From an uncultured archaeon (GTDB lineage: Archaea; Asgardarchaeota; Thorarchaeia; Thorarchaeales; Thorarchaeaceae), in NCBI GenBank assembly GCA_964590575.1, contig CAZPWM010000064.1:1-17768 (forward strand): 17,768 nucleotides of DNA, in the 5' to 3' direction. The notes beneath the pieces are model-generated. The model worked only from the letters and a program-made list of their open reading frames with translations. It searched no databases and was not told where the DNA came from. The translations under genes were made by a program, and so were the position numbers. Position 1 is the stretch's first letter; every line of letters starts with the position of its first letter. Shown in pieces: positions 765-13,968 of the stretch.

Positions 765-868
765 ATCTCAAGTCTACAAACATATTTCGCCCGTCGTATA
801 TAGTATAAGCTCTTTCAAGAAAGTTGTTTATTTACTCAATAGTGTTGAAAGTTTCCATTGTTTTCAGA

Positions 869-3800
869 TTACTTCAAATCGTTTCTCAGTTTCAAGCCTC
901 GCTCATAATACTCTCTTCTCGTTCCCACGCCTAACTTCCACAACTCAACATCATCAGGTATGACCCCAAATGCCTTTTCTACTTCATTCCTCGAGTCTTC
1001 GGGATTGTTATTACCCATTAGTATCTCAGCCTTCAAAACTCTAGCTATAAACAGGTACCACTTTACTTCCTCATCTTCTAAATTCATAGTCACGAGATGT
1101 GAGATATTTTCATCAACTCGTTCTAGTGCCACATCAAATCGCTCTTGTCTGAGATAATACTCCACTAACTGGTTTGCATGGGAGCCCATAGCCTTGAGCT
1201 TACCCTCCTCTCGATATTCCTCAATAAACATAATCAATTCAGCCTCTTTGCGGTCGATACCATCTGCTTCCAGTTCATCGTCATCAAGAATTCCTCTCAA
1301 CATCATACGAAACTCCTCCTTGTTCTCAAGAGTATAATCAGACAATGCTCCCTCATCTAGGACATCAATAACTGAGTCTGTATCATCATCTTCACCTAGT
1401 GTGAACTCCTCTTCATAGATCACAACCTCATTCTCTTCCCAGATACTCAGAGTTATTCTCATCCCTTTTCCAGTTTGTGCAACATCAACTCGACACAGAG
1501 GCTTTTCATCTCCCCATCCATAGGCCTTGAGTTGTTCTCTAATACCATCAAGCTCCTCATCATAGTTGTAGATGTTGTCTCTTGATGCACCAATCATCTT
1601 CAACTCCCCGACCAGTTCTTCTATCATGCCCTCGAGATTTAAGGTTCCATTCAGTTTCATAGTAAATGTCTTTCCCATCCAAGACTGTTTAGTCAGTGTT
1701 GAATTTAGAGTCCAATGAATCATCCCCTTCTTGAACACACTCGATAATATCCACTCTCCCTCTGGGAGTGAGAACTCCTGGTCCTCATGTTCCTCGTCAT
1801 CATAGCTGAGAGCATGAACAAGCCGTGACTCCTCAGCTAATCCTGATGGCAGTCGCACACGTGTTAGTTGACTTACATCGATTTCAAGGGTGAAGTCTTT
1901 TCCAATACTAGCATCAACAAGTTCCTCACATTCAACAAGAAGTTCCAACTCATAGGGGTTCATCCATTCATCCTCAAGTGTCTTCAACTGCGACTTCTTT
2001 GGCAGCCCTTTGAGCTTGACCGTGATGAAGTTGAACTCACCCTTGTTTCGACGAACTTCATCTACCTCTGCCACAAGGGTGATTGTCCCTCCATCCCTTG
2101 TTTGGAGAAGCTCTGCACAAGTCTTGGGAAACAGATTCCCCAGTGAGAAGAGATCAACACGATGAACGAGAGGTGTGAAAAATGAGAGATATATGACATG
2201 CGCCTTTTCTCCACGTCGGTCGACGACAGCAGAATACTCTATGTCTTTCTTATGGTCCCAGAACAGCAGTCCACCATCATCTGTTCTTAGAGGTGTACCC
2301 TTCAAGTATGGGTGCTTCAACAAACCAATGAGCTCATACGTGTTTCTCAGCTCGTAGGAATGTCCTGAGCTGAACTCTACACGATAGCGCTCTGTTTCAA
2401 GGTTAATACTCACTTGGGTTTTCACATCCTCAATCTCTTCCGAACCTTTGAAGGCTCCAAAGAGCAACGAGTCCACATTTGCATCAACCTTGAGAATCTG
2501 CTCAGGTCTGCTTTTCTCCAGTTCCAAGAACAGACTCTCCGGAATTGGTGAGAGTTTAAGCCAACGTAACAGTCGTCCATCATCTCTGCTTGTGGCAAAC
2601 TCAAGAACCACAGGTGCAGTCCATTTGTCCTCTCCCTCAATCTCATCAATGAACCAGAGGATACAGGTTTCACCGATATTCGTAAGAGCTATCTGACTTC
2701 TCGCTGAGGATTCAGTCATAGTCCTAACAGAGGTCCTCAACGTTGATGGGTCAGTTATACATTGATTCCAGCCGAGCTTCAGTCCGTGACCTTCTAGATC
2801 TGATACAAGACCAATGAGTGGTTGGTCTGCATCTGGAAGCACAACCCATGCATTTGGTACTCCTTCCCTCTCCATCCAGATAAGCTGTCCATAAACTACA
2901 TCCTCGGTGGAAATTTGAGGTTGTATGGTATCCCTCAGACACGTTGCGCGGAACATCAGCCTCGAATAGATGAATTGGAAGTCATACTGTGATTGTGCCG
3001 TCTCTTCCGCGTGATCCATTGGCTGAAAACCCATCTGATACAGTTGCCATTCAACCATCGACTCCCATAGGGTTATGACAAGACCTTCAGAGGGTTTGAG
3101 AGAGTGTGTCTTGATGACTGTGAGAAGAGCAAGGAACAGGTTGTTCCCATAGAGTGAGATGATATCAGGACACAGCTCCTTCGCCATCTGCAGTACAGCC
3201 CTGTTGTCAGTTGTAAGGATGTCACCAAGTGTTTCTCTGGAGCCTTCAACCTCACTCCAGATTTGAGCTCTCCATGGATCACGAAGTATGATGTCCCGTA
3301 CTTCTTGAAGGGCAGTGACTAGAGTCTCTTCATCATGAGTGTCTAAGCGTACATCTACACACAGTCTGACTATATCCCGACAACATGAGTAAAGGTTACT
3401 GTTCTTGTGAAGTTGTTTCATGAGGAACTTTGCCGCACTCCTGAGTCGCCTAATCTCTCTCTTACTAGCTGATAAGGTGTTCACCTCATCCAGTCCCGTC
3501 CTTTGATACATTGGGGGCCTTCGAGAAACCCCCACCTCATACTCTTGGTCATTAGAATCAATGGGTATCTTGTCATAATACCATCCTCTCTTGATCTTTG
3601 AGAACTCAATATATTGTTTCTTTGACCTGGGAGGTCGTGGAGGAGGTCTATCGGGAACAAAGTTCATCCTATCAGTGAGCAAGGGAGAGTCATTGGATGT
3701 GACAGCTAGCGAGACGCTCTGCCATTTTTCTTCCGTGGTTTGTTCTTCATGCGTGGATGACATCTCACGCCTTAGAAGACTCGGAACGAGAGTCATTCCA

Positions 3801-6517
3801 ATGTTCTGTAATTGGTTCACAGTCTCCGATGTGAGAGATGTAAGTGATGAGTGAACTTTCTTGAGTGTCACAGAACGACCGTACATTGGCTCGCCCTCGA
3901 AGTCACCCCCATAGACCTCTGCTCCAGGAACTACTCCTTCTCTTCTGGAGAGCCCTCTGTATTTTCGCGCCCACCCCTTCAAGTGTGGTACCCTTATGGG
4001 TTGTATCCATGGAGGTGCTTTTGTTGGAGTGTCTTGAATGATTAGTCTTGTGTCCTCGTTTCTTGGAGTTCGCCAGCCAAAGACCCGAGGAGCAATTGGG
4101 ACATTGTAGATGATCTCATCAATGTGAAACCGTCTGGGGGAGTCGTGACGAAGAGGTCGTACACAAGCTCTCTGATAGTGCTTGTTCATCCTAGTGTGAG
4201 AGACTCCATTGTCGATCCAAATCACATTCACGTTTTGAGAGGGCAGAGTGTCCAGAAGTCGGTCCTCCAAATTTCTTAGAATGTTCATTTTTCTTGGTGA
4301 GGTCATTTCTTTCAGTTGTGCCCACCCATCAACTATGATGATCCTCTCAGAGTCGGTTGTTTCCTTGCTATGAAGTGGCTCTAAGACACTTACGAGTTCA
4401 ACGTCTGTACCAGAGAGAACCGAGTCAATAGTAGCTCGCAAGTTGAGGAAGGTGACATTATCCAAGAGTGCTGTCAGTGTCTTGTGCATCCCTCTCGTAA
4501 TCTGTCTCTTTTTCAGCAAGATGTCAAGACCGAATCTTCTCTTCATGAGATGGTCAGTGGGATAGTCTCCCAAAAAATCTAGCCAATAGACCTGTAGCTT
4601 CTTGTTCGATGGTTGAGAGACCTCCTCGATATGATTCAATAAGTGCCAGTTCCGAGAAACCCATGCTGCAGCATTCCCGAAAGAAGTAGATGAGGGAATC
4701 GAAACATAGTGGGTCAATATTCGATCATCTGACACTCTCTCCTTGAATGGGTCCTCAACGGAGAGTGACAAAACAGGAGATTGCTCCTTGAAGAGTTCAT
4801 CCAAGTTCTCGCCCTCAAGGAGCAGAAGTGCAACTCGTAGAGTGGCACCCTCCTCATCCTTTGAGTCGAAGGTGAGTGTTCTGGATTCGTTCTTACTAAG
4901 CTCGCCAGTGAGAATCCCATTGGTCAGTTCATCCAGAAGAGTGTGGAATGCATCAAAGACCTCTGAGTAATCTTGGTCAGTGTCAAGTACAATGACTCCT
5001 TTCCAGAGGTTCTTTGGAATAGTGACACCAGCAGGGTTTATTCTCTTACTCTCTTCGAGCAATGCTTTCTCATAAGCCTCGAGCTGTGTCAGGACCCGAT
5101 CATCCGGGTCTGATTCTATCGTTCTTCCCCACTCGTCTTCTGATAAAACCCGTTTCCATGCATAGAGTGCTGGGGGCATTTCTTTTTTCTTTCCGGTGTG
5201 GATGGCATAGAGATTGAAGTCAAAAGAGGTCTTCGACTTGACCTCAATGATCATCACTGGTGTCCACAACACAAGCCCCTTGATGTTCCGTCTGATGAAA
5301 AACGTAAGATCTATCCTCCCCTTCTCTCCAAGCCCTGTAACTGGAAGCTCACCAACAATCAGAATTGATGAAGGTTGGTCAAGCATCTTATCTCCTGCAA
5401 AGATGACTGACCTTAACGACTTGGGGTGGTGAAGGTCTGAGAGTAGAATTCTGTGCCAGTCGTTTCCCTCTTTCTGAGAGAGTGCGAGGACTTGGTCAAA
5501 GAGCTTTTCAACATCCCTATCGACAATTCTTCCTTGGTCGATATGGTCTAGTATCTCGGAGTATCTCTCTCTTGTCTTTGCATCATGAGTTTCAGCGATC
5601 AGCTCGCTTACTTTGGCCCATAGGATGTCTACAGTGGGTTCTGGGATGTCTATATCCAGCTCTCTTGTGATGGATTGCCTCTTTCCCACATGGCTGCTAT
5701 ATAGACTACGAATCTCTAGAACTAGCGTTCTCAGCTCTTTGTCAGCATCAGGCTCGAAGTAGTTTCTACCACTCTTTCCCTCAGAATAGACATAGTCCAA
5801 GAACGGAGTGAGTCGATGGATCAACAACCTGATGTATCTATGAGCATCAGAACGTGGAACATTGTGGATGAAACACTGACGGACCAGCTCCACGCTATGG
5901 GCACGAATCATATCAACAAAGTCAAGTCCTGGGAGAGTGGGATGAGTTAGCAACACTGTCGGGAATTTTCTATTTCCTTTGTATCCTGCTTTCCAGTGCG
6001 TTTCATTGGCATCATCATGGGCATACTTGGATACATGCTTCTTCTGGATTGTTGCCTTCGTTCCATCTGAATATTTCCTTATCTGGAATTTCTCTGGCTC
6101 TGGAAAGGGGTATCTCGTCGTAGCAAGGTCTCTCAAACGTGCTCCAAGATAGTTGAGTAAAGCATTTAGTGGTCCAACTGTGCCTTCCTCCCAGCTATAT
6201 ACTCGTTTGAACTCATTGTTTCCAAAACGTCGTGTGCTGTGCCAGAGGATCTTGAGAAAGAATCTTCTCAGGTTTGCCTCTGCGTTCTTAATTGGTGTGA
6301 AATCAAGTCGCGATTTTCCCACGCTTTCTCTTCTTCTCTTTTGTTCTGCTCTAGCCTCGCTCCAGTGTGTCAGAATACTCTCTAGGTACTTGCAAGTCTT
6401 CTTGTCAACCCGTTTCCTTGCAAGTCTGACCAAAGCAGTTAGCCCAGTGTAGATTGATGCTGTTAGGATGGCATTGGGGTTCATCTCTCTAGGCTTGCGG
6501 CCCATTGCAATCAGCAT
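869..6517 (-). CDS. Giant (1882 aa) multidomain protein: basic N-terminal region, RecB/Cas4-type PD-(D/E)XK nuclease, degenerate RecA/KaiC-like P-loop fold, acidic TPR-like C-terminus
   Basis: Uninterrupted 5.6-kb ORF. Motifs E390...GRID403...IIE425VK427S...Q478LEAY482. RecA-like order of elements YVSIPSSTSFGN (no GKT), VYWLD, IIIVD730GW, VIWID. The true start may be ATG 6505 (MGRKPR), given the TATA box at 6534-6541. Confidence 0.85.
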   Translation of the reverse strand: MLIAMGRKPREMNPNAILTASIYTGLTALVRLARKRVDKKTCKYLESILTHWSEARAEQKRRRESVGKSRLDFTPIKNAEANLRRFFLKILWHSTRRFGNNEFKRVYSWEEGTVGPLNALLNYLGARLRDLATTRYPFPEPEKFQIRKYSDGTKATIQKKHVSKYAHDDANETHWKAGYKGNRKFPTVLLTHPTLPGLDFVDMIRAHSVELVRQCFIHNVPRSDAHRYIRLLIHRLTPFLDYVYSEGKSGRNYFEPDADKELRTLVLEIRSLYSSHVGKRQSITRELDIDIPEPTVDILWAKVSELIAETHDAKTRERYSEILDHIDQGRIVDRDVEKLFDQVLALSQKEGNDWHRILLSDLHHPKSLRSVIFAGDKMLDQPSSILIVGELPVTGLGEKGRIDLTFFIRRNIKGLVLWTPVMIIEVKSKTSFDFNLYAIHTGKKKEMPPALYAWKRVLSEDEWGRTIESDPDDRVLTQLEAYEKALLEESKRINPAGVTIPKNLWKGVIVLDTDQDYSEVFDAFHTLLDELTNGILTGELSKNESRTLTFDSKDEEGATLRVALLLLEGENLDELFKEQSPVLSLSVEDPFKERVSDDRILTHYVSIPSSTSFGNAAAWVSRNWHLLNHIEEVSQPSNKKLQVYWLDFLGDYPTDHLMKRRFGLDILLKKRQITRGMHKTLTALLDNVTFLNLRATIDSVLSGTDVELVSVLEPLHSKETTDSERIIIVDGWAQLKEMTSPRKMNILRNLEDRLLDTLPSQNVNVIWIDNGVSHTRMNKHYQRACVRPLRHDSPRRFHIDEIIYNVPIAPRVFGWRTPRNEDTRLIIQDTPTKAPPWIQPIRVPHLKGWARKYRGLSRREGVVPGAEVYGGDFEGEPMYGRSVTLKKVHSSLTSLTSETVNQLQNIGMTLVPSLLRREMSSTHEEQTTEEKWQSVSLAVTSNDSPLLTDRMNFVPDRPPPRPPRSKKQYIEFSKIKRGWYYDKIPIDSNDQEYEVGVSRRPPMYQRTGLDEVNTLSASKREIRRLRSAAKFLMKQLHKNSNLYSCCRDIVRLCVDVRLDTHDEETLVTALQEVRDIILRDPWRAQIWSEVEGSRETLGDILTTDNRAVLQMAKELCPDIISLYGNNLFLALLTVIKTHSLKPSEGLVITLWESMVEWQLYQMGFQPMDHAEETAQSQYDFQFIYSRLMFRATCLRDTIQPQISTEDVVYGQLIWMEREGVPNAWVVLPDADQPLIGLVSDLEGHGLKLGWNQCITDPSTLRTSVRTMTESSARSQIALTNIGETCILWFIDEIEGEDKWTAPVVLEFATSRDDGRLLRWLKLSPIPESLFLELEKSRPEQILKVDANVDSLLFGAFKGSEEIEDVKTQVSINLETERYRVEFSSGHSYELRNTYELIGLLKHPYLKGTPLRTDDGGLLFWDHKKDIEYSAVVDRRGEKAHVIYLSFFTPLVHRVDLFSLGNLFPKTCAELLQTRDGGTITLVAEVDEVRRNKGEFNFITVKLKGLPKKSQLKTLEDEWMNPYELELLVECEELVDASIGKDFTLEIDVSQLTRVRLPSGLAEESRLVHALSYDDEEHEDQEFSLPEGEWILSSVFKKGMIHWTLNSTLTKQSWMGKTFTMKLNGTLNLEGMIEELVGELKMIGASRDNIYNYDEELDGIREQLKAYGWGDEKPLCRVDVAQTGKGMRITLSIWEENEVVIYEEEFTLGEDDDTDSVIDVLDEGALSDYTLENKEEFRMMLRGILDDDELEADGIDRKEAELIMFIEEYREEGKLKAMGSHANQLVEYYLRQERFDVALERVDENISHLVTMNLEDEEVKWYLFIARVLKAEILMGNNNPEDSRNEVEKAFGVIPDDVELWKLGVGTRREYYERGLKLRNDLK

Positions 6518-6533
6518 ACTTTCTTAATATTAA

Positions 6534-6541
6534 TTTATAAA
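6534..6541 (-). promoter_or_regulatory. TATA box of the giant gene
   Basis: TTTATAAA about 30 bp upstream of ATG 6505, the usual spacing for a short-leader archaeal transcript. Confidence 0.55.
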
Positions 6542-6542
6542 G

Positions 6543-6589
6543 AATACGTTTCTAATGGTGAATTGAATAAGGCATATTAGAACCCTATT
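6543..6589. repeat. Imperfect inverted repeat (12/14) in the divergent promoter region, possible operator
   Basis: AATACGTTTCTAAT (6543-6556) and ATTAGAACCCTATT (6576-6589), 19-bp spacer. Confidence 0.5.
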
Positions 6590-6630
6590 TTTAAAATAAA
6601 ATGCTCATAATCCTTTATTATAAGAACGGC

Positions 6631-6645
6631 CTAATAAGTTTATAA
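6631..6645 (+). promoter_or_regulatory. BRE/TATA promoter for the tnpB leader transcript
   Basis: CTAATAAG-TTTATAA, predicting a start site near 6665-6670. Confidence 0.55.
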
Positions 6646-6741
6646 CCTCCGAAATAATAGAAAAGGTAGGAGTTCAAAACCTTCCTGATTGATATGAAAG
6701 GGAGTGAACTCGAAAGAGACAGGTCAGAAGTTTATAACCTC
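6636..6741 (+). repeat. Exact 14-bp direct repeat AAGTTTATAACCTC (6636-6649 and 6728-6741)
   Basis: Read directly from the sequence; 78 bp lie between the copies. Confidence 0.95.
6665..6741 (+). ncRNA. Putative crRNA-like guide unit in the tnpB leader (repeat-like 6702-6727, guide from 6728)
   Basis: 6702-6720 is complementary to 8462-8479. The segment ends in AGGTCAG, resembling archaeal IS200/IS605-type right ends, and is followed immediately by the 14-nt promoter match. Function is inferred. Confidence 0.45.
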
Positions 6742-6752
6742 AGGTGAAACAG

Positions 6753-8504
6753 ATGGGTCGCTCCAAAGGCACAATAATCAGCGTGAAAGTCCCAATACGA
6801 AGGGACTCTATGACTGATAGACAGAAGACTCGACTCTCGCAGATAACTGGAAGGGATACGCGAGTCATCAGGGCGTATCTTGGAGTGATTGAACGTCATG
6901 AAGATGAGTTGTTGACAGGTCACAAAAGAACGAGAATTGATGCTTCGAAACTGGATGAACTCACCCTGACTGCATCCAAAGGTAAGGCAAATAGAAATCA
7001 GGTCCCTCACGATTTCAAGGTTCGATTTCCAAATATATCCGCGAATGAGTTTCAGGAGTGTCGAGACACTGCCATTGCTATGTGGCAGAGTTATCTTGAG
7101 CTGGGCGGTTCCAAACCTTTCCGGATAAAGGGACACTCCACTCGAAAGATTCCACGATTTGCATTTACTCAACGTTTTGAGCTTGTATATAGTCCTGAGC
7201 TCGTAATTCGACACTGGTTGAAACTCAGGGACTCACTTGATTCAGTCAGTGAAGGGCGAGTACGACATGACAAGCTCATGATTCCCCTCTCTATCTCTTC
7301 TTTTCATCTAAATCGGTTGCAAGAGGGAGAGGTTAAGACAGTCCGTATCAACAAGGACTCCAGTCGTAAGTGGTGGGCTATCTTCACGGTGACTCTTTCT
7401 GTTGATAGAATCGATACTGTTGGCAAACCCCCTGCTGTACTGTCCATTGACCTTGGGATAAACAAGGCGGTTTGTTCAGTCCTGCTCACAAGAAAGGGCC
7501 ACAAACAGATTCGCTACTGGAAACAGGAGGACAAGCTTCAGCGGATGAAGGTACTGGATGAGAGGGTTGCGTCACTCCAGCGAGAAAAGGAACATCTCAT
7601 CGCAAAGGGTGGGAATCCCGACAGAGTAACTTTCCAGCTCAGGCGTCTACGTGGAAAACGAGAACGTGTTAGTACGGAATATGACAGGAAGCTTGTGCGA
7701 GATATTTCCGATCACATCATAGAGATGACCGATGTCTATGACCTTTATGTTTCAATAGGTAGGGTGAAAGGAATCAGAAATGCTGCCAGAAAGGGTAATT
7801 GTAGAGGGAGAAGATTCAGAGGGATGATCCATCGCTGGGCTTTTGCAAGGATTCGCGACATGTTGGAACACAGACTCACTTCCCTTGGGTTTGATCCCAA
7901 GAAGTACAACACAGTCCCGGAGCAATGGACCTCTATCATGTGTCACAAGTGTGGACACAAGGGAATACGCCCAAAACAGAACCTCTTCATCTGTACCACC
8001 TGTGGACTGAAGACAAACGCCGACCTGAATGGCGCTTCCAATATTGGGAAGCGCTTTATTATGCTCATCCCTTCACTGAGAGATGAGAACGGACTAGGGA
8101 TGTGGCTCACTCCCAGAGATAGAGCTATACTGAAAGCCCGGAGGAAGACTCGTGCTTCTGATGGGAAGTCCGCACTCCCCCAGGGAACACCAGACCCGAA
8201 GGGGGAGTCCGTGGCCGACTCCTATGACCAGACTTCAATAGTGGAGTTTGCGAGGTGTGAAGACCCTGTCATGGTAAGTGCTGTGGAAACACCGTCTGCT
8301 ATCGCACCAGCTGGTGAGTGTGAGGGAATGCAGCGGACAGAAACCGGGTCCCATCAGAGGAACGATGTTCCAGTGAAGAGGGGCAAAGCTCACGACACTC
8401 TGAAAGATTCCGATCTTTTGGAAGTTGGTGACAGCAGTCGTGAGAAGGGTGGAACGCAGAAGTCTCTTATAGTTCACTCACACTATAAGAAATGGGTTCT
8501 ATAG
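6753..8504 (+). CDS. tnpB: TnpB/Cas12f-like RNA-guided endonuclease with a rearranged (Fanzor-type) RuvC active site and a long C-terminal tail
   Basis: Numbered from the 586-aa ORF: RuvC-I SID236LG, RuvC-II position VSIG339RVKGIR, relocated E393 (VPEQWTSIMC), zinc finger C400/C403/C417/C420, RuvC-III NAD427LNGASNI. ATG 6753 is preferred because AGGTGA (6742-6747) is a canonical archaeal RBS. Confidence 0.92.
   Translation: MGRSKGTIISVKVPIRRDSMTDRQKTRLSQITGRDTRVIRAYLGVIERHEDELLTGHKRTRIDASKLDELTLTASKGKANRNQVPHDFKVRFPNISANEFQECRDTAIAMWQSYLELGGSKPFRIKGHSTRKIPRFAFTQRFELVYSPELVIRHWLKLRDSLDSVSEGRVRHDKLMIPLSISSFHLNRLQEGEVKTVRINKDSSRKWWAIFTVTLSVDRIDTVGKPPAVLSIDLGINKAVCSVLLTRKGHKQIRYWKQEDKLQRMKVLDERVASLQREKEHLIAKGGNPDRVTFQLRRLRGKRERVSTEYDRKLVRDISDHIIEMTDVYDLYVSIGRVKGIRNAARKGNCRGRRFRGMIHRWAFARIRDMLEHRLTSLGFDPKKYNTVPEQWTSIMCHKCGHKGIRPKQNLFICTTCGLKTNADLNGASNIGKRFIMLIPSLRDENGLGMWLTPRDRAILKARRKTRASDGKSALPQGTPDPKGESVADSYDQTSIVEFARCEDPVMVSAVETPSAIAPAGECEGMQRTETGSHQRNDVPVKRGKAHDTLKDSDLLEVGDSSREKGGTQKSLIVHSHYKKWVL
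8155..8500 (+). ncRNA. Putative omega/reRNA (tracr-like) scaffold overlapping the tnpB 3' end
   Basis: Nested stems: 8157-8166/8349-8358 (10 bp), 8168-8173/8333-8338, 8174-8181/8201-8208, 8222-8228/8268-8274, 8229-8250 hairpin, 8359-8371, 8389-8396/8437-8444, 8403-8418, 8465-8473/8482-8490. TnpB RNAs are known to overlap the gene 3' end. Confidence 0.75.
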
Positions 8505-8547
8505 GCTTATCATAGTAGAATCAACATTAGAGGCAGTGAGAGATACG

Positions 8548-9384
8548 ATGTCCACAAAGGTGTCCATACTGGGTGTCTGGCTTATCGAGCGAGGCAGCGG
8601 TAGGAATCTTGTGTCTAGGGCGTACTCTGACGCAGTCAAGCTAGATATGGATTTGATTGCACCATTCCTCTCTGCTACTCACACCTTCATCGATAAAGCT
8701 TCAAATGAAACTCTCAAGACTGTAGACACTGAAACCAACAGATATGTCTGGGAAGCCAACGACCATCTCCTCTTTGTCATGGTCGTTTCCAAAGCGGCAC
8801 GGCTTGGACACATGCGTTTCATTCTCGAATATGCTCTCAATGAATTCATGAACAAAGAGGTTCCTTCTGACTCTGATATTGATACTCTTTTGAAGAACTG
8901 GCATGGAGCTCCTAACACATTCACAAAATTTGGTAAGTTTGTGGATGAGCTAGTAACTCAGTATGAGGCGACTGATGAGAGTCTTGTGGCTGGGAAGTCG
9001 ATGGATTGTCTTGAGGTCTATAGCCATCTTTTCAGAGGAATTATGCGCGTAAAAGGCGGAAAGCAGAAAAAGGAAGCAATTGTCAAACGAATGAAAGGAC
9101 TCACTGAACCACTTATTGATAGATATCCCTATCTTTCTCAGGTTCCAATAGATGCAGCTGGTATCGAGGTTCTTGACATTGACATAGGCAATGTTGCATA
9201 CCAGCATCTTAGAGATTCATTAGAGGAGCTACTGCGACTTCTTGGTAAAGTCGTTCGTGAGGTAGTAACCCCAAAGGCATACCGCGATATGTTGTTCGAT
9301 CATGTAATGCCATATGTGAAACATGATATACAGAGGCTTCAGACATATGCGATTCTTGACGACGTTATTAGATATCTATTCTAA
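8548..9384 (+). CDS. Longin-like domain protein (Asgard eukaryotic-signature type) with a helical C-terminal domain
   Basis: N-terminal pattern ILGVWLIERGSGRNLVSRAY...LIAPFLSATHTF...LKTVDT...RYVW...LLFVMVVS...ILEYALNEF fits the longin beta-beta-alpha-beta-beta-beta-alpha fold. Alternative start GTG 8536. Confidence 0.65.
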   Translation: MSTKVSILGVWLIERGSGRNLVSRAYSDAVKLDMDLIAPFLSATHTFIDKASNETLKTVDTETNRYVWEANDHLLFVMVVSKAARLGHMRFILEYALNEFMNKEVPSDSDIDTLLKNWHGAPNTFTKFGKFVDELVTQYEATDESLVAGKSMDCLEVYSHLFRGIMRVKGGKQKKEAIVKRMKGLTEPLIDRYPYLSQVPIDAAGIEVLDIDIGNVAYQHLRDSLEELLRLLGKVVREVVTPKAYRDMLFDHVMPYVKHDIQRLQTYAILDDVIRYLF

Positions 9385-10725
9385 TTACTTTTCGAGGACA
9401 ATCAGAGATCTTTGAACTACTTGCCCTCTTTTTCTCTCAGGTATCAATTCTCGATCTGGTCTGATTCTAAGACGCGGATGAATATCCCTCTTGTTCAATA
9501 TAGACCTCCCCGGCAACATCCTATACAGTGCCAATCCCGTACCTCTTGTTAAATCTTTGAATTTAATCGATATTGCTTCTCCCTCGGTGTTAATCACAGG
9601 AATTGTCATGGCGACACGACCATCAGGTCTAAGTATGCTCGCAATCTCTGTAAGCACTTGTTGATAGAGGGTAGTAAGCTCTTTGATTGTCTTATCTGCT
9701 TCAGATCGTGAAGGTTTTTTCTTGAATATTGGTCCCAAGATTGGTTCAAAGGCAACAGCATCAACTTGCTTTTTAATAAGTGATGATAACTCTCTTGAGT
9801 CCCCTTTGAAAACATCATAATCGAGTTTCATGCCCAAATCATTTGCAAGCCATTTTAGGTTTGATCTGGTGCCTTGAACCTGATCTCCATCTATGTCCAC
9901 ACCAATGCACTTCATCCCTAAGATGGCTGCTTCCATGAGAAGAGTTCCAGTACCACAGAAAGGATCAAGTATAGTATCCCCCGGTCTTGCTCCGGCGAGG
10001 TTGAGCAACGTTCTACAAATCTTCGGGCTCGTACTAATTTCGGCTGAAACAAAAGGTCTTGACTCATCTCTATATTGCTGTAACATAGAGTCGTAGACAA
10101 TCCGCGTCCTCGCAATGTACAGCTTCCTTTCAGAGAATATTGCTAGAACTTCTGCATTGGGTGTAGCTAACAACGCATTTTGAGCAATGGTCTTGGGCCA
10201 GAGTGCAATATTCAATCGTTCCTCCACTCGTCTATCTGGCTCGTCATAGGCGAAATAATCTGCCCGTTTGGCACCATTTTCTAGTAGGAGTTTCTTAACT
10301 TGGTCGTCCATGCCTCGAGTGAATCTTCTGAAATTAACTGGAGAGCTGCCATCGAAAACTGGATATGTACTGATACCAAACTTGATTTTTTTCCCGTTTG
10401 CTCTTGGCCACACAATCTTAAGCCAAGGACACTTTCGGATTTCTTCAAGAGCCTCTTTGTTTGCAACGCCTTTTGTTGGAAAAGATTTCATTGGTAGGTC
10501 AATGTCGTACTCCCAGATGACTTTGCCAATTTTATAGCAGCCTCCCAGAGCTGATTGCATATCCACAATCTGATCACTATCAAGGCGTTGTTTGATATCG
10601 ACAATTGCAGCATTTCTTGAATGGTCCACAAGGGTTCCATCAAAACCTCGGTCCTGTACGTATGCTAAGAGTTCAGCTATACTGAGTAACCAGTTCGAAC
10701 CGAGCACAAATGCAAGTTTTGTCAT
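9385..10725 (-). CDS. trm11: Trm11/TrmG10-family tRNA guanine-N2 methyltransferase
   Basis: SPKICRTLLNLA, SAM motif ILDPFCGTGTLLMEA, IGVDID, and an N-terminal THUMP-like region. Confidence 0.8.
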   Translation of the reverse strand: MTKLAFVLGSNWLLSIAELLAYVQDRGFDGTLVDHSRNAAIVDIKQRLDSDQIVDMQSALGGCYKIGKVIWEYDIDLPMKSFPTKGVANKEALEEIRKCPWLKIVWPRANGKKIKFGISTYPVFDGSSPVNFRRFTRGMDDQVKKLLLENGAKRADYFAYDEPDRRVEERLNIALWPKTIAQNALLATPNAEVLAIFSERKLYIARTRIVYDSMLQQYRDESRPFVSAEISTSPKICRTLLNLAGARPGDTILDPFCGTGTLLMEAAILGMKCIGVDIDGDQVQGTRSNLKWLANDLGMKLDYDVFKGDSRELSSLIKKQVDAVAFEPILGPIFKKKPSRSEADKTIKELTTLYQQVLTEIASILRPDGRVAMTIPVINTEGEAISIKFKDLTRGTGLALYRMLPGRSILNKRDIHPRLRIRPDRELIPERKRGQVVQRSLIVLEK

Positions 10726-12193: not shown

Positions 12194-13135
12194 ATGACTG
12201 AAACCTCGTCTGAAATAAATAATCCTACGCGTTTCCACCCAAAGGCTTTCCTATCAATAATCCGACCGCAGAACTGTGTCATTGGTGGTCTAACTGTTAT
12301 TGCAGGTGTAGCCATGGCCTATCGTATGGCTCAAGTTGGCAGCGGTATCTCTGATTTCCTGCCTCTTTTCATCTACGGCTACGTCACGTACTTCTTCGTA
12401 GCTGCTGGTGGTAATGTTGTAAATGATATTTTTGATGTTGAGGTTGACAAGATTAATCGTCCACATCGTGCTCTACCCAGTGGAAGAATGACAATAAAAC
12501 AAGCATGGGGATATGTGGCATTTCTAAGCATTGTCGGTCTTCTGTTTGCCATTCTTACTGGTCCCTATAGTGCATTGATTGTGTTATGTTTCCAAATCAT
12601 TGGCTACGCTTACGCAGCGAAGGTGAAGACACTTGGGCTTGCAGGTAATTTCATGGTGGCATTCTCATTTGCTTTTGGTGTTCTCTATGGTGCATTTGCC
12701 TATGGCGAAACCATTGGATTACCACTGACAAATGCTATTCCATTACCCCATTGGCTCTTCTTTTTCACAGCCTTCCTTATTCTCCAAGCCCGTGAAACCA
12801 TCAAGGGTGCTGAAGATGTTGAGGGTGATGAAGCTAGAGATGTACGCACCATTGCTAGAATCTACGGTTACAATGTAGCTGCCGCGGTAGCTGCAGCACT
12901 CAACTTCATCGGAGTCCTAAGCTATGTGCTAATTTGGATCTGGGGTTTTGCAAGCTGGAATTTGTGGCCATTGCTCCTGTTGGGTTCAGGTATAGTCACA
13001 GGAGCTGGAATTGCTCCACTCACCAGACCAGACAATAAACGAGCTCTTCTGATTGGAAGTACCCTGGACAAAATTGGTGCACTAGTAGGTTTGATTGCCT
13101 TTGTTATAATTCCATTATATGGACTCCTGATCTAA
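12194..13135 (+). CDS. Digeranylgeranylglyceryl phosphate synthase (UbiA prenyltransferase)
   Basis: IIRPQN, GNVVNDIFDVEVDKINRPHRALPSG, RETIKGAEDVEGD and multiple TM helices. Confidence 0.9.
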   Translation: MTETSSEINNPTRFHPKAFLSIIRPQNCVIGGLTVIAGVAMAYRMAQVGSGISDFLPLFIYGYVTYFFVAAGGNVVNDIFDVEVDKINRPHRALPSGRMTIKQAWGYVAFLSIVGLLFAILTGPYSALIVLCFQIIGYAYAAKVKTLGLAGNFMVAFSFAFGVLYGAFAYGETIGLPLTNAIPLPHWLFFFTAFLILQARETIKGAEDVEGDEARDVRTIARIYGYNVAAAVAAALNFIGVLSYVLIWIWGFASWNLWPLLLLGSGIVTGAGIAPLTRPDNKRALLIGSTLDKIGALVGLIAFVIIPLYGLLI

Positions 13136-13968
13136 TGTACTTGCCAAAACGTCCATACTAGTACAATCACGCAAGCCACAGCAACTAATGCAGCCCATAA
13201 TGTTGAAGTATCGTGTGCCTCCCTGATTCCAAAGATTAACAGATAACCCGTCCACAAGAACGCACCTGTCGTCATGATATCTATTGCAAACCAAATTCCA
13301 GAAGTATATGCCCAGCTTATCACTGCTGGAGTAATCAACGCTAGCGCACCACTATCGGAGAAGTCGACTATGTCTGGATATGCTGGCAATCCTATGAGAA
13401 CCACAAGTATCGCAACCAATCGCACGAGGATGACTGGCATCATGCTATAACCCACTACCGAGAGCGTCTTCATCCTACTTCCTGTACCGCCAGTTATTTT
13501 GAAGGCGAAATGTGCAAACATTGTCCCAACCACGAGATAGATGAGACCTATCATGATATTTGGCATTATTCCCACAAGCGCAACTATCCAGACTATACCT
13601 CCTTGAGGACTGGTCAACAAATTGGTCTGACCAATCTCGAAAGTTGTTGCATTCACAATGACATTAGTAGTGATTTTTGATGACATTGATAGAAACAAAC
13701 CCGCAAAAATCAAAGCATTGATCAGAATTATCATAAATGGACCTGCGGCGTCGGGTCTTTGTCCAATATCTCGATATGTTGCTGATGGCTTTCTGATCAC
13801 TCCCCACATTCTTTCACGAGTTCCCATGTACTTTACTTCAGGGGATTCAGGTCTCTTTAGGATAGGTAAAATTCGTTCTAGAGTTTCTTCTGCAATAGTT
13901 TCCTTGCAGACTGGACAAGTGGTTGCGTCAGCCGGAACAGGGCTGTCACAGAATTCACAGCGCCGCAC
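13132..13968 (-). CDS. Yip1-domain membrane protein with an N-terminal zinc ribbon
   Basis: CEFC...CPVC at the N-terminus, GVIRKPSATY, five TM helices with LSVVGYSMMP and GIREAH. Confidence 0.8.
   Translation of the reverse strand: MRRCEFCDSPVPADATTCPVCKETIAEETLERILPILKRPESPEVKYMGTRERMWGVIRKPSATYRDIGQRPDAAGPFMIILINALIFAGLFLSMSSKITTNVIVNATTFEIGQTNLLTSPQGGIVWIVALVGIMPNIMIGLIYLVVGTMFAHFAFKITGGTGSRMKTLSVVGYSMMPVILVRLVAILVVLIGLPAYPDIVDFSDSGALALITPAVISWAYTSGIWFAIDIMTTGAFLWTGYLLIFGIREAHDTSTLWAALVAVACVIVLVWTFWQVH

Follow-up and report, generated by a model that had tools for sequence, protein, structure and literature searches.

Among the described systems, the TnpB-omegaRNA systems (OMEGA, IS200/IS605-type) share with the locus analysed here a TNB domain, a guide scaffold that overlaps the 3' end of the gene and is followed by a flank guide, and, in the explanation proposed below, the logic of a seed of ~12 bp. 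The TnpB seed has been described as the ~12 TAM-proximal bp (review PMC13639567), a 10-nt guide is reported to bind without cleavage (PMC13507860), and known TAMs include TTAT, GTTAT, TTTAA, and TTTAT (PMC13507860; bioRxiv 10.1101/2023.11.30.569447). In TranC and Cas12f, according to reviews that cite Jin et al. (2025, Cell), the TnpB RNA can be split functionally into scaffold and guide pieces, held together by a tracrRNA:crRNA or repeat:anti-repeat-like duplex. Two further systems are relevant with regard to autoregulation: the long-form tracrRNA of Cas9 (Workman et al.), in which the nuclease's RNA, with a truncated guide, binds its own promoter uncut; and the TldR proteins, which are TnpB-like, nuclease-dead repressors with natural guides of 9-16 nt, a pentanucleotide TAM (GTTAT, TTTAA), and targets overlapping promoters. 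Repression of promoters by the short guides of both TldR and long-form tracrRNA has been reported (bioRxiv 10.1101/2023.11.30.569447). Finally, the aCas1-linked TnpB genes of Asgard archaea (PMC10691335) carry, in their downstream part, the same GTTCACTCA motif as found here, preceded by a hypervariable stretch for which a spacer-like guide was suggested.

The locus lies in a window of 17,768 nt (the whole stretch of DNA analysed) from an uncultured archaeon of the Thorarchaeaceae. Unlike OMEGA systems, its family has in the leader a further guide-like module that complements the terminal hairpin; at 583 aa, the protein is long, and it has a Gly at the RuvC-II Glu position; and the element forms the end of a 7.7-kb unit that also contains a giant ORF. 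Moreover, no Y1 TnpA (PF01797), as expected of an IS200/IS605 element, was found in its genome, which is 91.45% complete (0 matches; controls worked). Unlike TranC, the locus lacks a CRISPR array, as well as any repeats or spacers beyond one leader unit per gene, and each unit has one fixed guide-like box rather than the differing spacers of a type V array; the leader guide would be fixed on the element's own promoter, with the scaffold retaining its cis guide. Sequence comparison shows a co-varying duplex that may correspond to the repeat:anti-repeat duplex of such systems. The long-form tracrRNA of Cas9 belongs to another protein family and another domain of life, whereas the guide proposed here lies in an mRNA leader and would borrow its scaffold by pairing. 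TldRs are immobilised regulators of host genes that have lost RuvC residues; the present family, in contrast, keeps the RuvC-I and RuvC-III Asp residues, is multi-copy rather than immobilised beside a host gene, and is proposed to target itself. In its NADxN RuvC-III motif and its Gly-for-Glu RuvC-II, it is similar to the "derived" or rearranged classes of PMC10691335; however, the hypervariable stretch is here a co-varying helix arm with two partners, and no Cas1 adjoins it. Among the papers covered by a full-text literature search, none dealt with a second guide encoded in the leader or with a TnpB that targets its own promoter.

Table 1. Features of the TnpB-like locus (positions in the window)
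Feature	Position	Strand	Description
7.7-kb insertion relative to related genomes	804..8499		Giant ORF (869-6517, minus strand) and TnpB module; TATAG at 799-803 and 8500-8504
TAM-like CTAAT (family C-T-T-V-A-T)	6631..6635	+	Directly 5' of P1; putative TAM
Upstream box P1, AAGTTTATAACCTC	6636..6649	+	TATA-like; identical to 6728-6741; proposed leader-guide target and leader/tnpB promoter
Start of conserved leader block, GTAGGAGTTCA...	6666..6701	+	Local hairpin: outer arm GAGTTCA (6670-6676), variable inner stem
Leader anti-hairpin segment	6702..6720	+	GAGTGAACT (6702-6710), cga, AAGAGAC (6714-6720); complements 5' arm and loop of the omegaRNA terminal hairpin
Leader linker AGGTCAG (family RGGTCNN)	6721..6727	+	Counterpart of 8494-8500
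Leader guide-like box P2	6728..6741	+	Identical to P1; followed by Shine-Dalgarno-like AGGTGA (6742-6747)
TnpB-like ORF	6753..8504	+	583 aa from ATG 6753; 586 aa from GTG 6744
3' coding region in metatranscriptome contigs	8094..8407	+	Putative omegaRNA scaffold; 4/4 RNA runs
Conserved scaffold motif GGTGACA...GGTGGAAC	8427..8455	+	Upstream of the terminal hairpin
Terminal hairpin, 5' arm and near-invariant loop GTTCACTCA (8472-8480)	8462..8481	+	5' arm is the "hypervariable" stretch of the literature; partner 8482-8493 or leader 6702-6720
Terminal hairpin, 3' arm ACTATAAGAAAT	8482..8493	+	Competes with the leader segment
RE linker GGGTTCT	8494..8500	+	Element end (ambiguous over 8499-8504); flank guide from ~8501

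Results

The TnpB-like gene and its genomic context

The Pfam domain Cas12f1-like_TNB (PF07282) matched the ORF with an E-value of 1.2e-12 (48.2 bits versus a cut-off of 26.3), and the match of OrfB_IS605 (PF01385) was under its cut-off (21.2 versus 30.5). Cas12f and TnpB were the nearest solved relatives in a PDB profile search (4.7e-10 to 6.7e-9). The protein has the RuvC-like nuclease with Zn-ribbon (TNB) domain that characterises TnpB/OMEGA nucleases. The Asp residues of RuvC-I (SIDLG) and RuvC-III (NADLNGA) were invariant in the family protein alignment A1. At the RuvC-II Glu position, the family reads S-I-G-R, with Gly in place of Glu; this assignment is based on a manual alignment of SIGRLKGI with the E-D-L-T-G-I of Cas12f, the HMMER alignment being offset and weak at this point. 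Clades with Gly for Glu in RuvC-II and an alternative Glu are described in PMC10691335.

The tnpB family was represented by at least seven copies or fragments in the same genome. Empty sites for the window insertion were found in eight genomes of the same genus, and none was found for the C2 copy in the 14 same-genus genomes searched. This latter copy was flanked by the 10-bp direct repeat AACTCTAGGT and the C11 copy by a 25-nt tRNA-gene repeat; ARAGORN reported no tRNA in eight loci, although an intron-containing tRNA gene was visible by eye at the C11-type site. No match to Cas1 (PF01867) was obtained in the genome itself. Cas1 was present in two of the five related genomes, on contigs other than those of the tnpB loci, and none adjoined the family's tnpB loci.

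Complementarity between the leader and the terminal hairpin

The original prediction was of a 9+7 bp complementarity across the tnpB gene, and this was confirmed at exactly the coordinates claimed. The downstream partner of the leader segment consists of GTCTCTT (8462-8468), at, and AGTTCACTC (8471-8479), which gives 9+7 Watson-Crick pairs around a 3/2-nt internal loop. The local hairpin formed by the downstream segment (CTTATAGT/ACTATAAG, 8466-8473/8482-8489) and the two segments of AAGA plus 10 nt, one in the leader and one at the 3' end, were also present as described.

In the single sequence, this complementarity was only modestly unusual, with a probability of ~1% by chance: with a local complement-alignment score of 25, it was equalled or surpassed in 52 of 5000 dinucleotide shuffles of the 81-nt leader, and 12 of 1296 other 81-nt segments of the window scored as high. 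A gapless repeat finder did not return the leader/hairpin pair, and listed 22 other inverted pairs of at least 12 nt in 2.6 kb. RNAduplex, when run on the whole segments (81 x 106 nt), produced long, loop-rich structures of unexceptional energy (186 of 500 shuffles were as low), and was replaced by local complement alignment and short-segment duplexes. A 16-nt inverted repeat elsewhere (6578-6593/8486-8501) was treated as chance, as it was not retained in C2 or L010.

Homology between paralogues begins at 6667. The outer stem of the local leader hairpin was 95% paired, without compensation, and the inner stem, judged by eye from the alignment rows, seemed to vary yet stay paired; RNAalifold did not predict this stem.

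Conservation and co-variation across the family

The family comprises Thorarchaeota TnpB-like genes, and pairing was counted in the 31 loci in which both ends could be parsed. This set leaves out L030 (linker pattern unmatched), L036 (leader deleted), L042 and C8 (both 5'-truncated), and every locus with one end missing from its contig. A duplex of 11-25 bp between the leader and the 3' hairpin was found in all 31 loci, with an average of 19.6 bp and energies from -14.5 to -38.8 kcal/mol, and in all 31 it was more stable than the local hairpin. The pairing persisted across subfamilies, down to 47% protein identity. The mean energy was -24.43 kcal/mol for cognate versus -20.26 kcal/mol for non-cognate pairs, and the cognate mean was reached in 0 of 20000 permutations, also when permutation was confined within subfamilies. 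Because it is conserved across the family, the complementarity is more than a chance match.

In the window's subfamily (17 whole-element sequences), 97.0% of 271 cells were standard pairs in register, versus 23-47% when the same sequences were slid by 1-3 columns. One pair was compensatory (AU 8, GC 6, GU 1, other 2), with a covariation score reached by 3 of 500 shuffles. Uncompensated mismatches in the long-range helix were observed in L015 (A.C) and L018 (C.A). Across the family, compensated variants included AAGAGAC/GTCTCTT, AAGAAAC/GTTTCTT, and AAAAAAC/GTTTTTT. In L029 and L033, the leader GAGTGAGC was matched by the loop GCTCACTC, and the adjacent internal GGAAC was uncompensated (A.C in two sequences). 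An additional A in the leader of L064 was matched by an additional T in the loop, L058 had a compensatory change in the leader segment, and subfamily 3 had duplexes of 21-25 bp with sequences of its own. The duplex contained 37 G.U pairs in total and was more stable for the sense than for the antisense strand in 21 of the 31 loci.

The comparison with homologues that had been called for in the original prediction thus found a pairing that is conserved, cognate-specific, and co-varying. Judged from the sequences, the complementarity represents a selected pairing on the sense strand, most likely of RNA.

Two mutually exclusive helices and a shared linker

The local terminal hairpin also co-varied, with 94% and 80% of cells paired and two pairs changed on both sides, which makes a three-way co-variation of the leader segment, the hairpin 5' arm, and the hairpin 3' arm. 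Since the local hairpin co-varies as well as the leader pairing, two mutually exclusive helices are maintained. The loop had no conserved internal partner within 400 nt upstream; 5 of 31 loci had no more than stray matches (7- or 9-mers), whose places were inconsistent.

In both arrangements, the helix is followed by a 7-nt linker, RGGTYNN, and then by the guide position: the partner of G8462 is either C6720 or U8493, and the guide position lies 7 nt further on, at 6728 or 8501, respectively. Over 35 loci, the leader linker was nearly invariant at G-6 (34/35), G-5 (35/35), T-4 (34/35), and C-3 (35/35), and its last two letters changed between subfamilies in step with those of the RE linker. 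Over AAGAAACAGGTC, the leader of C11 matched its hairpin 3' arm letter for letter.

Nucleotide conservation between paralogues stopped at 8495-8501. As in TnpB/OMEGA systems, the scaffold and the 3' end of the ORF overlap and flank sequence follows the scaffold, and the flank probably serves as guide, because the conserved non-coding scaffold ends where inter-copy homology ends. The flank guides of nine RE copies had no second full match in the genome. An Rfam search of the window (E<=1) gave no family match for the scaffold, the only match being a sub-threshold one to freshwater-1 elsewhere in the window.

The upstream box and the leader box

The 12-14 nt that follow the leader linker (P2) were repeated 92 nt upstream as P1. 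The two boxes co-varied in 35 of 45 loci, with an identical block of 9-17 nt (median 13) beginning right after the linker and right after T-V-A-T, and the same was seen in 9 of another 15 loci, from metagenomes. Within loci, box identity was 0.91-1.00 from +1 to +12 and fell to background by +16, versus 0.23-0.56 between loci at variable box positions. Upstream of P1, position -4 was T in 35/35 loci, -3 was A, C, or G and never T, -2 was A in 32/35, and -1 was T in 35/35; T-V-A-T, a motif of the sort that TnpB proteins recognise as a TAM, may act as one here. The position of the boxes was the same in all subfamilies, including those with a protein identity as low as 47%.

The C64, C2, and L010 copies were homologous far upstream of P1, and C64 differed from the other two at two positions, the same ones in P1 and in P2. 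As this difference arose in a homologous context, a target-derived origin is excluded for it. In C64, C2, C11, and C141, the copy's own P1 was the sole exact 12-nt match with T-V-A-T upstream in 3.4 Mb; one other T-V-A-T-flanked match, of C11's box on contig C15, carried one mismatch. For the window's box, P1 was the only 12-nt genome match with at most one mismatch and with T-V-A-T upstream. In silico, the locus shows the TldR-like arrangement of a guide-like sequence matching a putative promoter element flanked by a TAM-like motif, with a target that is unique in the genome. P1 is the likely promoter of the leader/tnpB transcript, given its fixed distance of ~30 nt to the start of conservation.

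The upstream box was missing in 10 of the 45 loci, among which at least C111 has an intact ORF; the box is therefore not indispensable. At the flank target, the TAM was mixed: among empty sites of only three types, two showed AAT before the target, and the window's own empty site showed TAT or was ambiguous, which conflicts with the absence of T at -3. Short-tract gene conversion between P1 and P2 may offer another explanation of the box identity.

Transcripts in metatranscriptomes

Contigs from four of four RNA runs (four studies) extended from 8094/8096 to between 8320 and 8407; such contigs cannot prove RNA ends, their breaks may be assembly branch points, and their support for a scaffold RNA is weak. 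No contig covered the leader (6560-6980) in the four runs, which with assembled contigs neither demonstrates its absence nor lends it support.

Discussion

A proposed reading: two guides on one scaffold

The original prediction proposed that one scaffold could use either a cis guide or a separate piece from the leader. The conserved, co-varying pairing, the competing hairpin, the shared linker, and the TAM-like-flanked target are in keeping with this part of it. The accompanying scan for further leader-type units with different guides found none: in the whole genome there were only five units, all attached to tnpB copies.

As we picture it, the 5' arm and loop (8462-8480) would close on their own 3' arm, placing GGGTTCT and then the flank in guide position, which is the usual arrangement of a transposon-flank guide. 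Alternatively, 8462-8480 would pair with the leader at 6702-6720, so that AGGTCAG and the next 12-14 nt (6728-6741) would take the guide position. Such pairing, with both strands taken as RNA, would link the last omegaRNA hairpin to the module in the leader of the tnpB transcript, and the two pieces could act in trans or in cis, on one long transcript. TnpB loaded in the leader arrangement would bind the P1 promoter; a match of seed length only (~12 bp) would allow binding without cutting, and the protein's own expression would be repressed. If the TATA box of a copy's own promoter is bound by its leader guide, every copy would have a private RNA-programmed autorepressor.

That one omegaRNA scaffold serves both the flank guide and a leader guide directed at its own promoter, giving autoregulation, is a reading to which, on the comparative sequence evidence, we would give roughly even chances. 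We put forward more tentatively its fuller form, in which a natural dual-guide TnpB switches guides by exchange of the 3' arm, represses itself by a seed-only match at the TATA box, and represents a living scaffold/guide split that precedes tracrRNA:crRNA. The lack of leader contigs, the loci without an upstream box, the mixed flank TAM, and the uncompensated mismatches in L015 and L018 count against a reading with two guides, and so do two further observations. In the window's subfamily, the long-range helix was mostly held by invariance, with both-side changes at one of 16 pairs, and cognate pairs were ahead of non-cognate pairs by only ~1 kcal/mol. Moreover, the leader segment also belongs to the local leader hairpin (95% paired), which the long-range pairing would have to open. 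In a bolder variant, the leader guide would also pick insertion sites ~30 bp downstream of the TAM and box. By analogy, the leader unit could be regarded as an evolutionary intermediate to the Cas12f tracr:crRNA.

If the proposal is true, this would be the first natural TnpB with two guides on one scaffold, the first transposon nuclease repressing its own promoter by RNA guidance, and the first guide-bearing RNA recruited to an omegaRNA through base pairing without a CRISPR array. The proposed "RNA splitting" route from TnpB to Cas12 could then be tested in an extant Asgard lineage, and the "hypervariable region + GTTCACTCA" left open by the TnpB census would be accounted for. It would also suggest a compact engineering design, with a fixed scaffold RNA and short, exchangeable TnpB guide RNAs.

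Alternative explanations

The pairing and co-variation data are also compatible with RNA-RNA regulation only, in which an abundant omegaRNA hairpin would pair with the tnpB 5' UTR, in trans or within one transcript, and so control translation, the stability of the mRNA, or the maturation of the omegaRNA, with no guide role for the leader. The leader pairs 22-45 nt upstream of the Shine-Dalgarno-like AGGTGA, and RNA from the 3' region in 4/4 runs, versus 0/4 for the leader, also fits this account. We nevertheless consider it unlikely, as it leaves unexplained both the RGGTYNN linker, found in the same register in the leader and in the RE, and the 12-14-nt identity to an upstream TATA region preceded by T-V-A-T.

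Somewhat less probable is that the arms are DNA-level transposition signals read by a transposase, either as subterminal inverted repeats or as a single-strand hairpin at the RE-LE junction, with the boxes arising by duplication at insertion (a target-site duplication or target-derived sequence). The direct repeats that flank the copies, namely TATAG for the window unit in addition to those of C2 and C11, speak for such signals, and single-stranded DNA tolerates G.T pairs as well. The genome, however, has neither Y1 TnpA nor Cas1 among the 91% recovered. The arms are internal rather than terminal, set in by 35-53 nt from the edge of the conserved left block and by 22-39 nt from the right end, with the true left junction of the unit at 804, and so do not match the terminal inverted repeats of a DDE-type transposon. 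C64 came to differ from C2/L010 in its boxes within a homologous context, and repeated insertions would not give boxes at a fixed place in all subfamilies. Degenerate terminal inverted repeats, the alternative named in the original prediction, are thus not a good description of the arms: in addition to their internal position, the G.U pairs favour the sense strand, and the shared linker and matching target argue otherwise.

The variable stretch before GTTCACTCA could instead be a spacer-like guide, with the leader DNA as its target (cf. PMC10691335), and indeed both the sequence and the length of the stretch are hypervariable, and it complements the leader. This seems improbable: compensatory changes with the hairpin's own 3' arm mean that the variable stretch acts like one arm of a helix, the leader complementarity has internal loops and extends over the invariant loop, and homology between the copies continues for another ~20-40 nt downstream, up to the linker, the place expected for the start of a flank guide.

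That the complementarity is due to chance, or is what remains of an ancient, decaying duplication of the RE 3' half, would suit the modest single-sequence statistics and the fact that part of the leader (AAGARAC+AGGTC) directly repeats the hairpin 3' arm, but is very improbable and already disfavoured by the comparative data, given the pairing in every parsed locus, the permutation result, and the compensatory substitutions and indel in the loop-pairing part, a part absent from the hairpin 3' arm.

The tnpB gene and its relatives

The 9 + 7 bp complementarity reported in the original prediction, between 6702-6720 and 8462-8479, was present exactly as described. The leader contains the left arm, 33-51 nt 5' of the ATG of a TnpB-like ORF, and the 3' end of this ORF contains the right arm; no Rfam family was found for either arm. 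The nearest solved relatives of the encoded protein were Cas12f and TnpB, and its match to OrfB_IS605 was below the Pfam cut-off.

Coordinates of the features discussed, in positions of the window
Feature	Position	Description	Evidence
Left half of empty site	784-803		
7.7-kb insertion	804 to 8499-8504	1882-aa ORF, with TnpB module at right end	comparison with 8 same-genus genomes
1882-aa ORF	869-6517	minus strand	
Inverted repeat	6578-6593 / 8486-8501	16 nt	
Upstream box	6636-6649	copy of 6728-6741	
Start of leader conservation	6666	GTAGGAGTTCA	
Leader pairing segment	6702-6720	left arm	
Leader linker	6721-6727	AGGTCAG	
Downstream (guide-like) box	6728-6741	14 nt	
TnpB-like ORF	ATG 6753 to stop 8504	583 aa, between the two arms	Pfam Cas12f1-like_TNB, 1.2e-12
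Terminal hairpin, 5' arm and loop	8462-8481		
Terminal hairpin, 3' arm	8482-8493		
Hairpin linker	8494-8500		
Flank guide (putative)	from ~8501		
Downstream gene	8536-9384		
freshwater-1 RNA match	13884-13950	minus strand	Rfam, sub-threshold

Contig C64, which is the window, belongs to a 3.4-Mb genome (91% complete), in which full paralogues were found on contigs C111 (82% DNA identity), C2 (79%) and C11 (67%), together with a cut copy on C141 and, on C8 and C107, copies that are truncated or more distant. Pieces limited to the 3' end (scaffold and hairpin) were observed on C79 (~10259-10317, minus strand), C3 (~12325-12382, minus strand) and C11 (42452-42536, plus strand), with no tnpB match on the same stretch and with a short insertion, AGTT..GATTCACTCAC, in the loop region; these are possibly remnants, or guide RNA genes that stand alone. 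When one genome was scanned for each species, 41 loci were obtained, 40 of which were close relatives from Thorarchaeota MAGs or archaeal MAGs (45-82% protein identity), the last coming from a Clostridia MAG (21% identity). Seventeen further loci, one identical to the window, were obtained from a metagenome scan.

Large TnpB clades have been described in which Gly replaces the RuvC-II Glu and another Glu is presumed to serve instead (PMC10691335). Since the family studied here has S-I-G-R at the RuvC-II place, according to our own motif alignment, and NADLN at RuvC-III, nuclease activity is possible.

Pairing of the leader with the terminal hairpin

Within the single sequence, the pairing was only modestly unusual: of 5000 dinucleotide shuffles, 52 attained its local complement-alignment score of 25, as did 12 of 1296 other segments of the window (an energy-based test on long segments was uninformative). 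Among relatives, the 3' part of the leader and the terminal hairpin region formed a duplex in all 31 loci with both ends parsed, with 11-25 bp (mean 19.6) and -14.5 to -38.8 kcal/mol, and this duplex was invariably more stable than the local hairpin. Mean duplex energy was -24.43 kcal/mol for cognate versus -20.26 kcal/mol for non-cognate partners, a cognate mean reached by 0 of 20000 permutations, whether free or restricted to within the three subfamilies. The cognate advantage was large in subfamily 3 (-33.2 versus -19.3 with foreign partners) and small in subfamily 1, that of the window (-19.2 versus -18.2 to -18.9), where the helix is mostly invariant.

When 17 whole elements of subfamily 1 were aligned, 97.0% of cells were paired in register versus 23-47% when slid, and one compensatory pair was identified (AU in 8 elements, GC in 6, GU in 1, other in 2). 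In loci L029 and L033, an A-to-G change in the leader core was matched by a T-to-C change in the loop; L064 exhibited an additional A in the leader core and an additional T in the loop, and L058 paired AAAAAAC with GTTTTTT. Mismatches without compensation were observed in L015 (A.C) and L018 (C.A). Covariation across homologues, which the original prediction had named as a check, was found in the form of conserved, cognate-specific pairing with compensatory changes, and the pairing is under selection in this family. The sense-strand duplex was the stabler in 21 of the 31 loci, with 37 G.U pairs, which points to RNA, or the top DNA strand, as the pairing strands.

A nearby internal GGAAC, proposed by RNAalifold as the partner of the loop, did not change along with the loop in L029 and L033. 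A conserved complement of the near-invariant loop GTTCACTCA was sought in the 400 nt upstream and was not found.

Two exclusive helices with a shared geometry

Covariation was also found within the terminal hairpin, between its 3' arm and its 5' arm (changes on both sides in two pairs; 94% and 80% of cells paired), so that the 5' arm keeps two partners, its own 3' arm and the leader. One part of the leader, AAGARAC followed by AGGTC, directly duplicates the hairpin 3' arm and linker, with 12 of 12 letters in common in C11. G8462 closes the helix with either C6720 or U8493, and in either case a 7-nt RGGTYNN linker follows, leading to 6728 or to 8501, where homology between copies ends. The final two linker letters match by subfamily (GG/GG in subfamily 3, TT/TT in the clade of L012, L015 and L018). 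The leader segment also takes part in a local leader hairpin, with an outer stem that is 95% paired, without compensation, and an inner stem that, in aligned rows judged by eye, is apparently variable yet paired.

Overall, the best-supported reading is that of two arrangements of one scaffold, as in the original prediction, with conserved, co-varying pairing and the same linker geometry; the idea of several crRNA-like units was not supported. A functional split of TnpB RNA into tracrRNA and crRNA has been reported ('TranC'; Jin et al. 2025).

A stretch of hypervariable sequence downstream of tnpB, between a conserved T and the conserved GTTCACTCA, has been reported for Asgard aCas1-linked TnpB groups, and a role as a spacer-like guide was suggested but left open (PMC10691335). 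This region corresponds to the 5' arm of the terminal hairpin in the present alignments, and its variability is that of a helix arm co-varying with two partners.

Box repeat and predicted target of a putative leader guide

The 14 nt located 3' of the leader linker are repeated upstream. Among the 45 loci with sufficient upstream sequence, 35 had a repeated block, identical over 9-17 nt (median 13), beginning exactly 3' of the linker, with the upstream copy ~93-99 nt 5' and beginning exactly 3' of C-T-T-V-A-T. Before the upstream box, T was present at -4 and at -1 in all 35 loci and A at -2 in 32, and T never occurred at -3. Within-locus box identity, partly fixed by the selection rule at the first 9 positions, was 0.91-1.00 at +1 to +12, then 0.74, 0.60 and 0.40, and was at background by +16; between-locus agreement at variable positions was only 0.23-0.56. 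The repeat was also found in 9 of 15 further metagenome loci (three had no box and three identical loci were unparsed). The 10 box-less loci included truncated copies, but also C111, with an intact ORF.

Because the upstream box has a TATA-like core at a constant distance of ~30 nt 5' of the start of leader conservation, and a Shine-Dalgarno-like AGGTGA is conserved 3' of the downstream box, we infer that a leadered tnpB mRNA has the upstream box as its promoter and that the downstream box is RNA. Over the two strands of the window's own genome, the 10-mer with which the leader block starts, TAGGAGTTCA, was counted 22 times, versus ~6 for a random 10-mer if all bases were equally frequent; only four of these occurrences belong to known copies.

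Between C64 and C2 or L010 (a locus from another MAG), the same two positions differ in both boxes, though upstream homology spans hundreds of bases; since the three are homologous upstream of the box, the C64 difference arose in place and not from the insertion target. All copies within one genome differ in box sequence. For each of four elements, no exact 12-nt match other than its own upstream box followed T-V-A-T in the window's own genome; the guide-like box of C11 had an additional one-mismatch match with T-V-A-T on contig C15. The predicted target of the putative leader guide would be the element's own promoter, which the original prediction did not include.

Binding without cutting has been reported for ISDge10 TnpB with a 10-nt guide (PMC13507860). 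Reported TAMs include TTAT, GTTAT, TTTAA and TTTAT; guides of 9-16 nt allow TldR proteins to repress promoters, and Cas9 acts on its own promoter through a long-form tracrRNA that carries a truncated guide (bioRxiv 10.1101/2023.11.30.569447).

The inverted repeat at 6578-6593 and 8486-8501 (81% complementary, perfect outer 8-mers) is probably due to chance, as it is absent from C2 and L010.

Element borders and insertion sites

Eight same-genus genomes contained an empty site, CGTCGTATATAG directly followed by GCTTATCAT, 5' of the downstream gene. The left half of this site in the window places the left border of the inserted unit. TATAG was present at both junctions, and the 1882-aa ORF had no Pfam match. 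A second copy of the whole unit, with a 10-bp direct repeat on either side, was found at C2:58780-66470 (75% identity); L010 showed the same synteny.

C11-type copies were located inside an intron-containing tRNA gene. At C11:27396-27560 and 29647-29671 (L004; also L083, L085, L088 and L089), a 25-nt 5' tRNA part was duplicated at the right junction, and the upstream tRNA copy had an additional 32-nt insert in the D-arm region. Among the filled loci, L004, L012, L016 and L018 were tested with ARAGORN and gave no tRNA call. AAT precedes the target in empty sites of the C11-type and of a third site, but TAT or an ambiguous sequence does so for the window; TAM support from flank targets was therefore mixed. 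In other genomes of the genus, G067 and G072 (L086 and L087) and G069, ~1.8 kb of additional DNA separated two parts of the C11-type flank. In G071 (L090), a subfamily-2 element lay ~95 nt into this flank, with AAT before the target in empty sites there.

Expression and other features of the window

Parts of the stretch were detected in 21 metatranscriptome runs. In four out of the four runs examined (four studies), contigs extended from 8094/8096 to between 8320 and 8407, with one run also having a contig over 6981-7212. This fits an abundant 3' RNA, although RNA ends cannot be read from contigs, whose breaks coincide with paralogue-shared segments; the starts at 8094-8096 reflect either a true 5' end of the RNA or a break in the assembly at such a segment.

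The freshwater-1 match (23.6 bits versus a gathering score of 72; E 0.2) is likely due to chance. The downstream gene matched Fuz_longin_1 weakly and below the cut-off (E 0.0074), and was conserved in 51 of the 60 family genomes searched.
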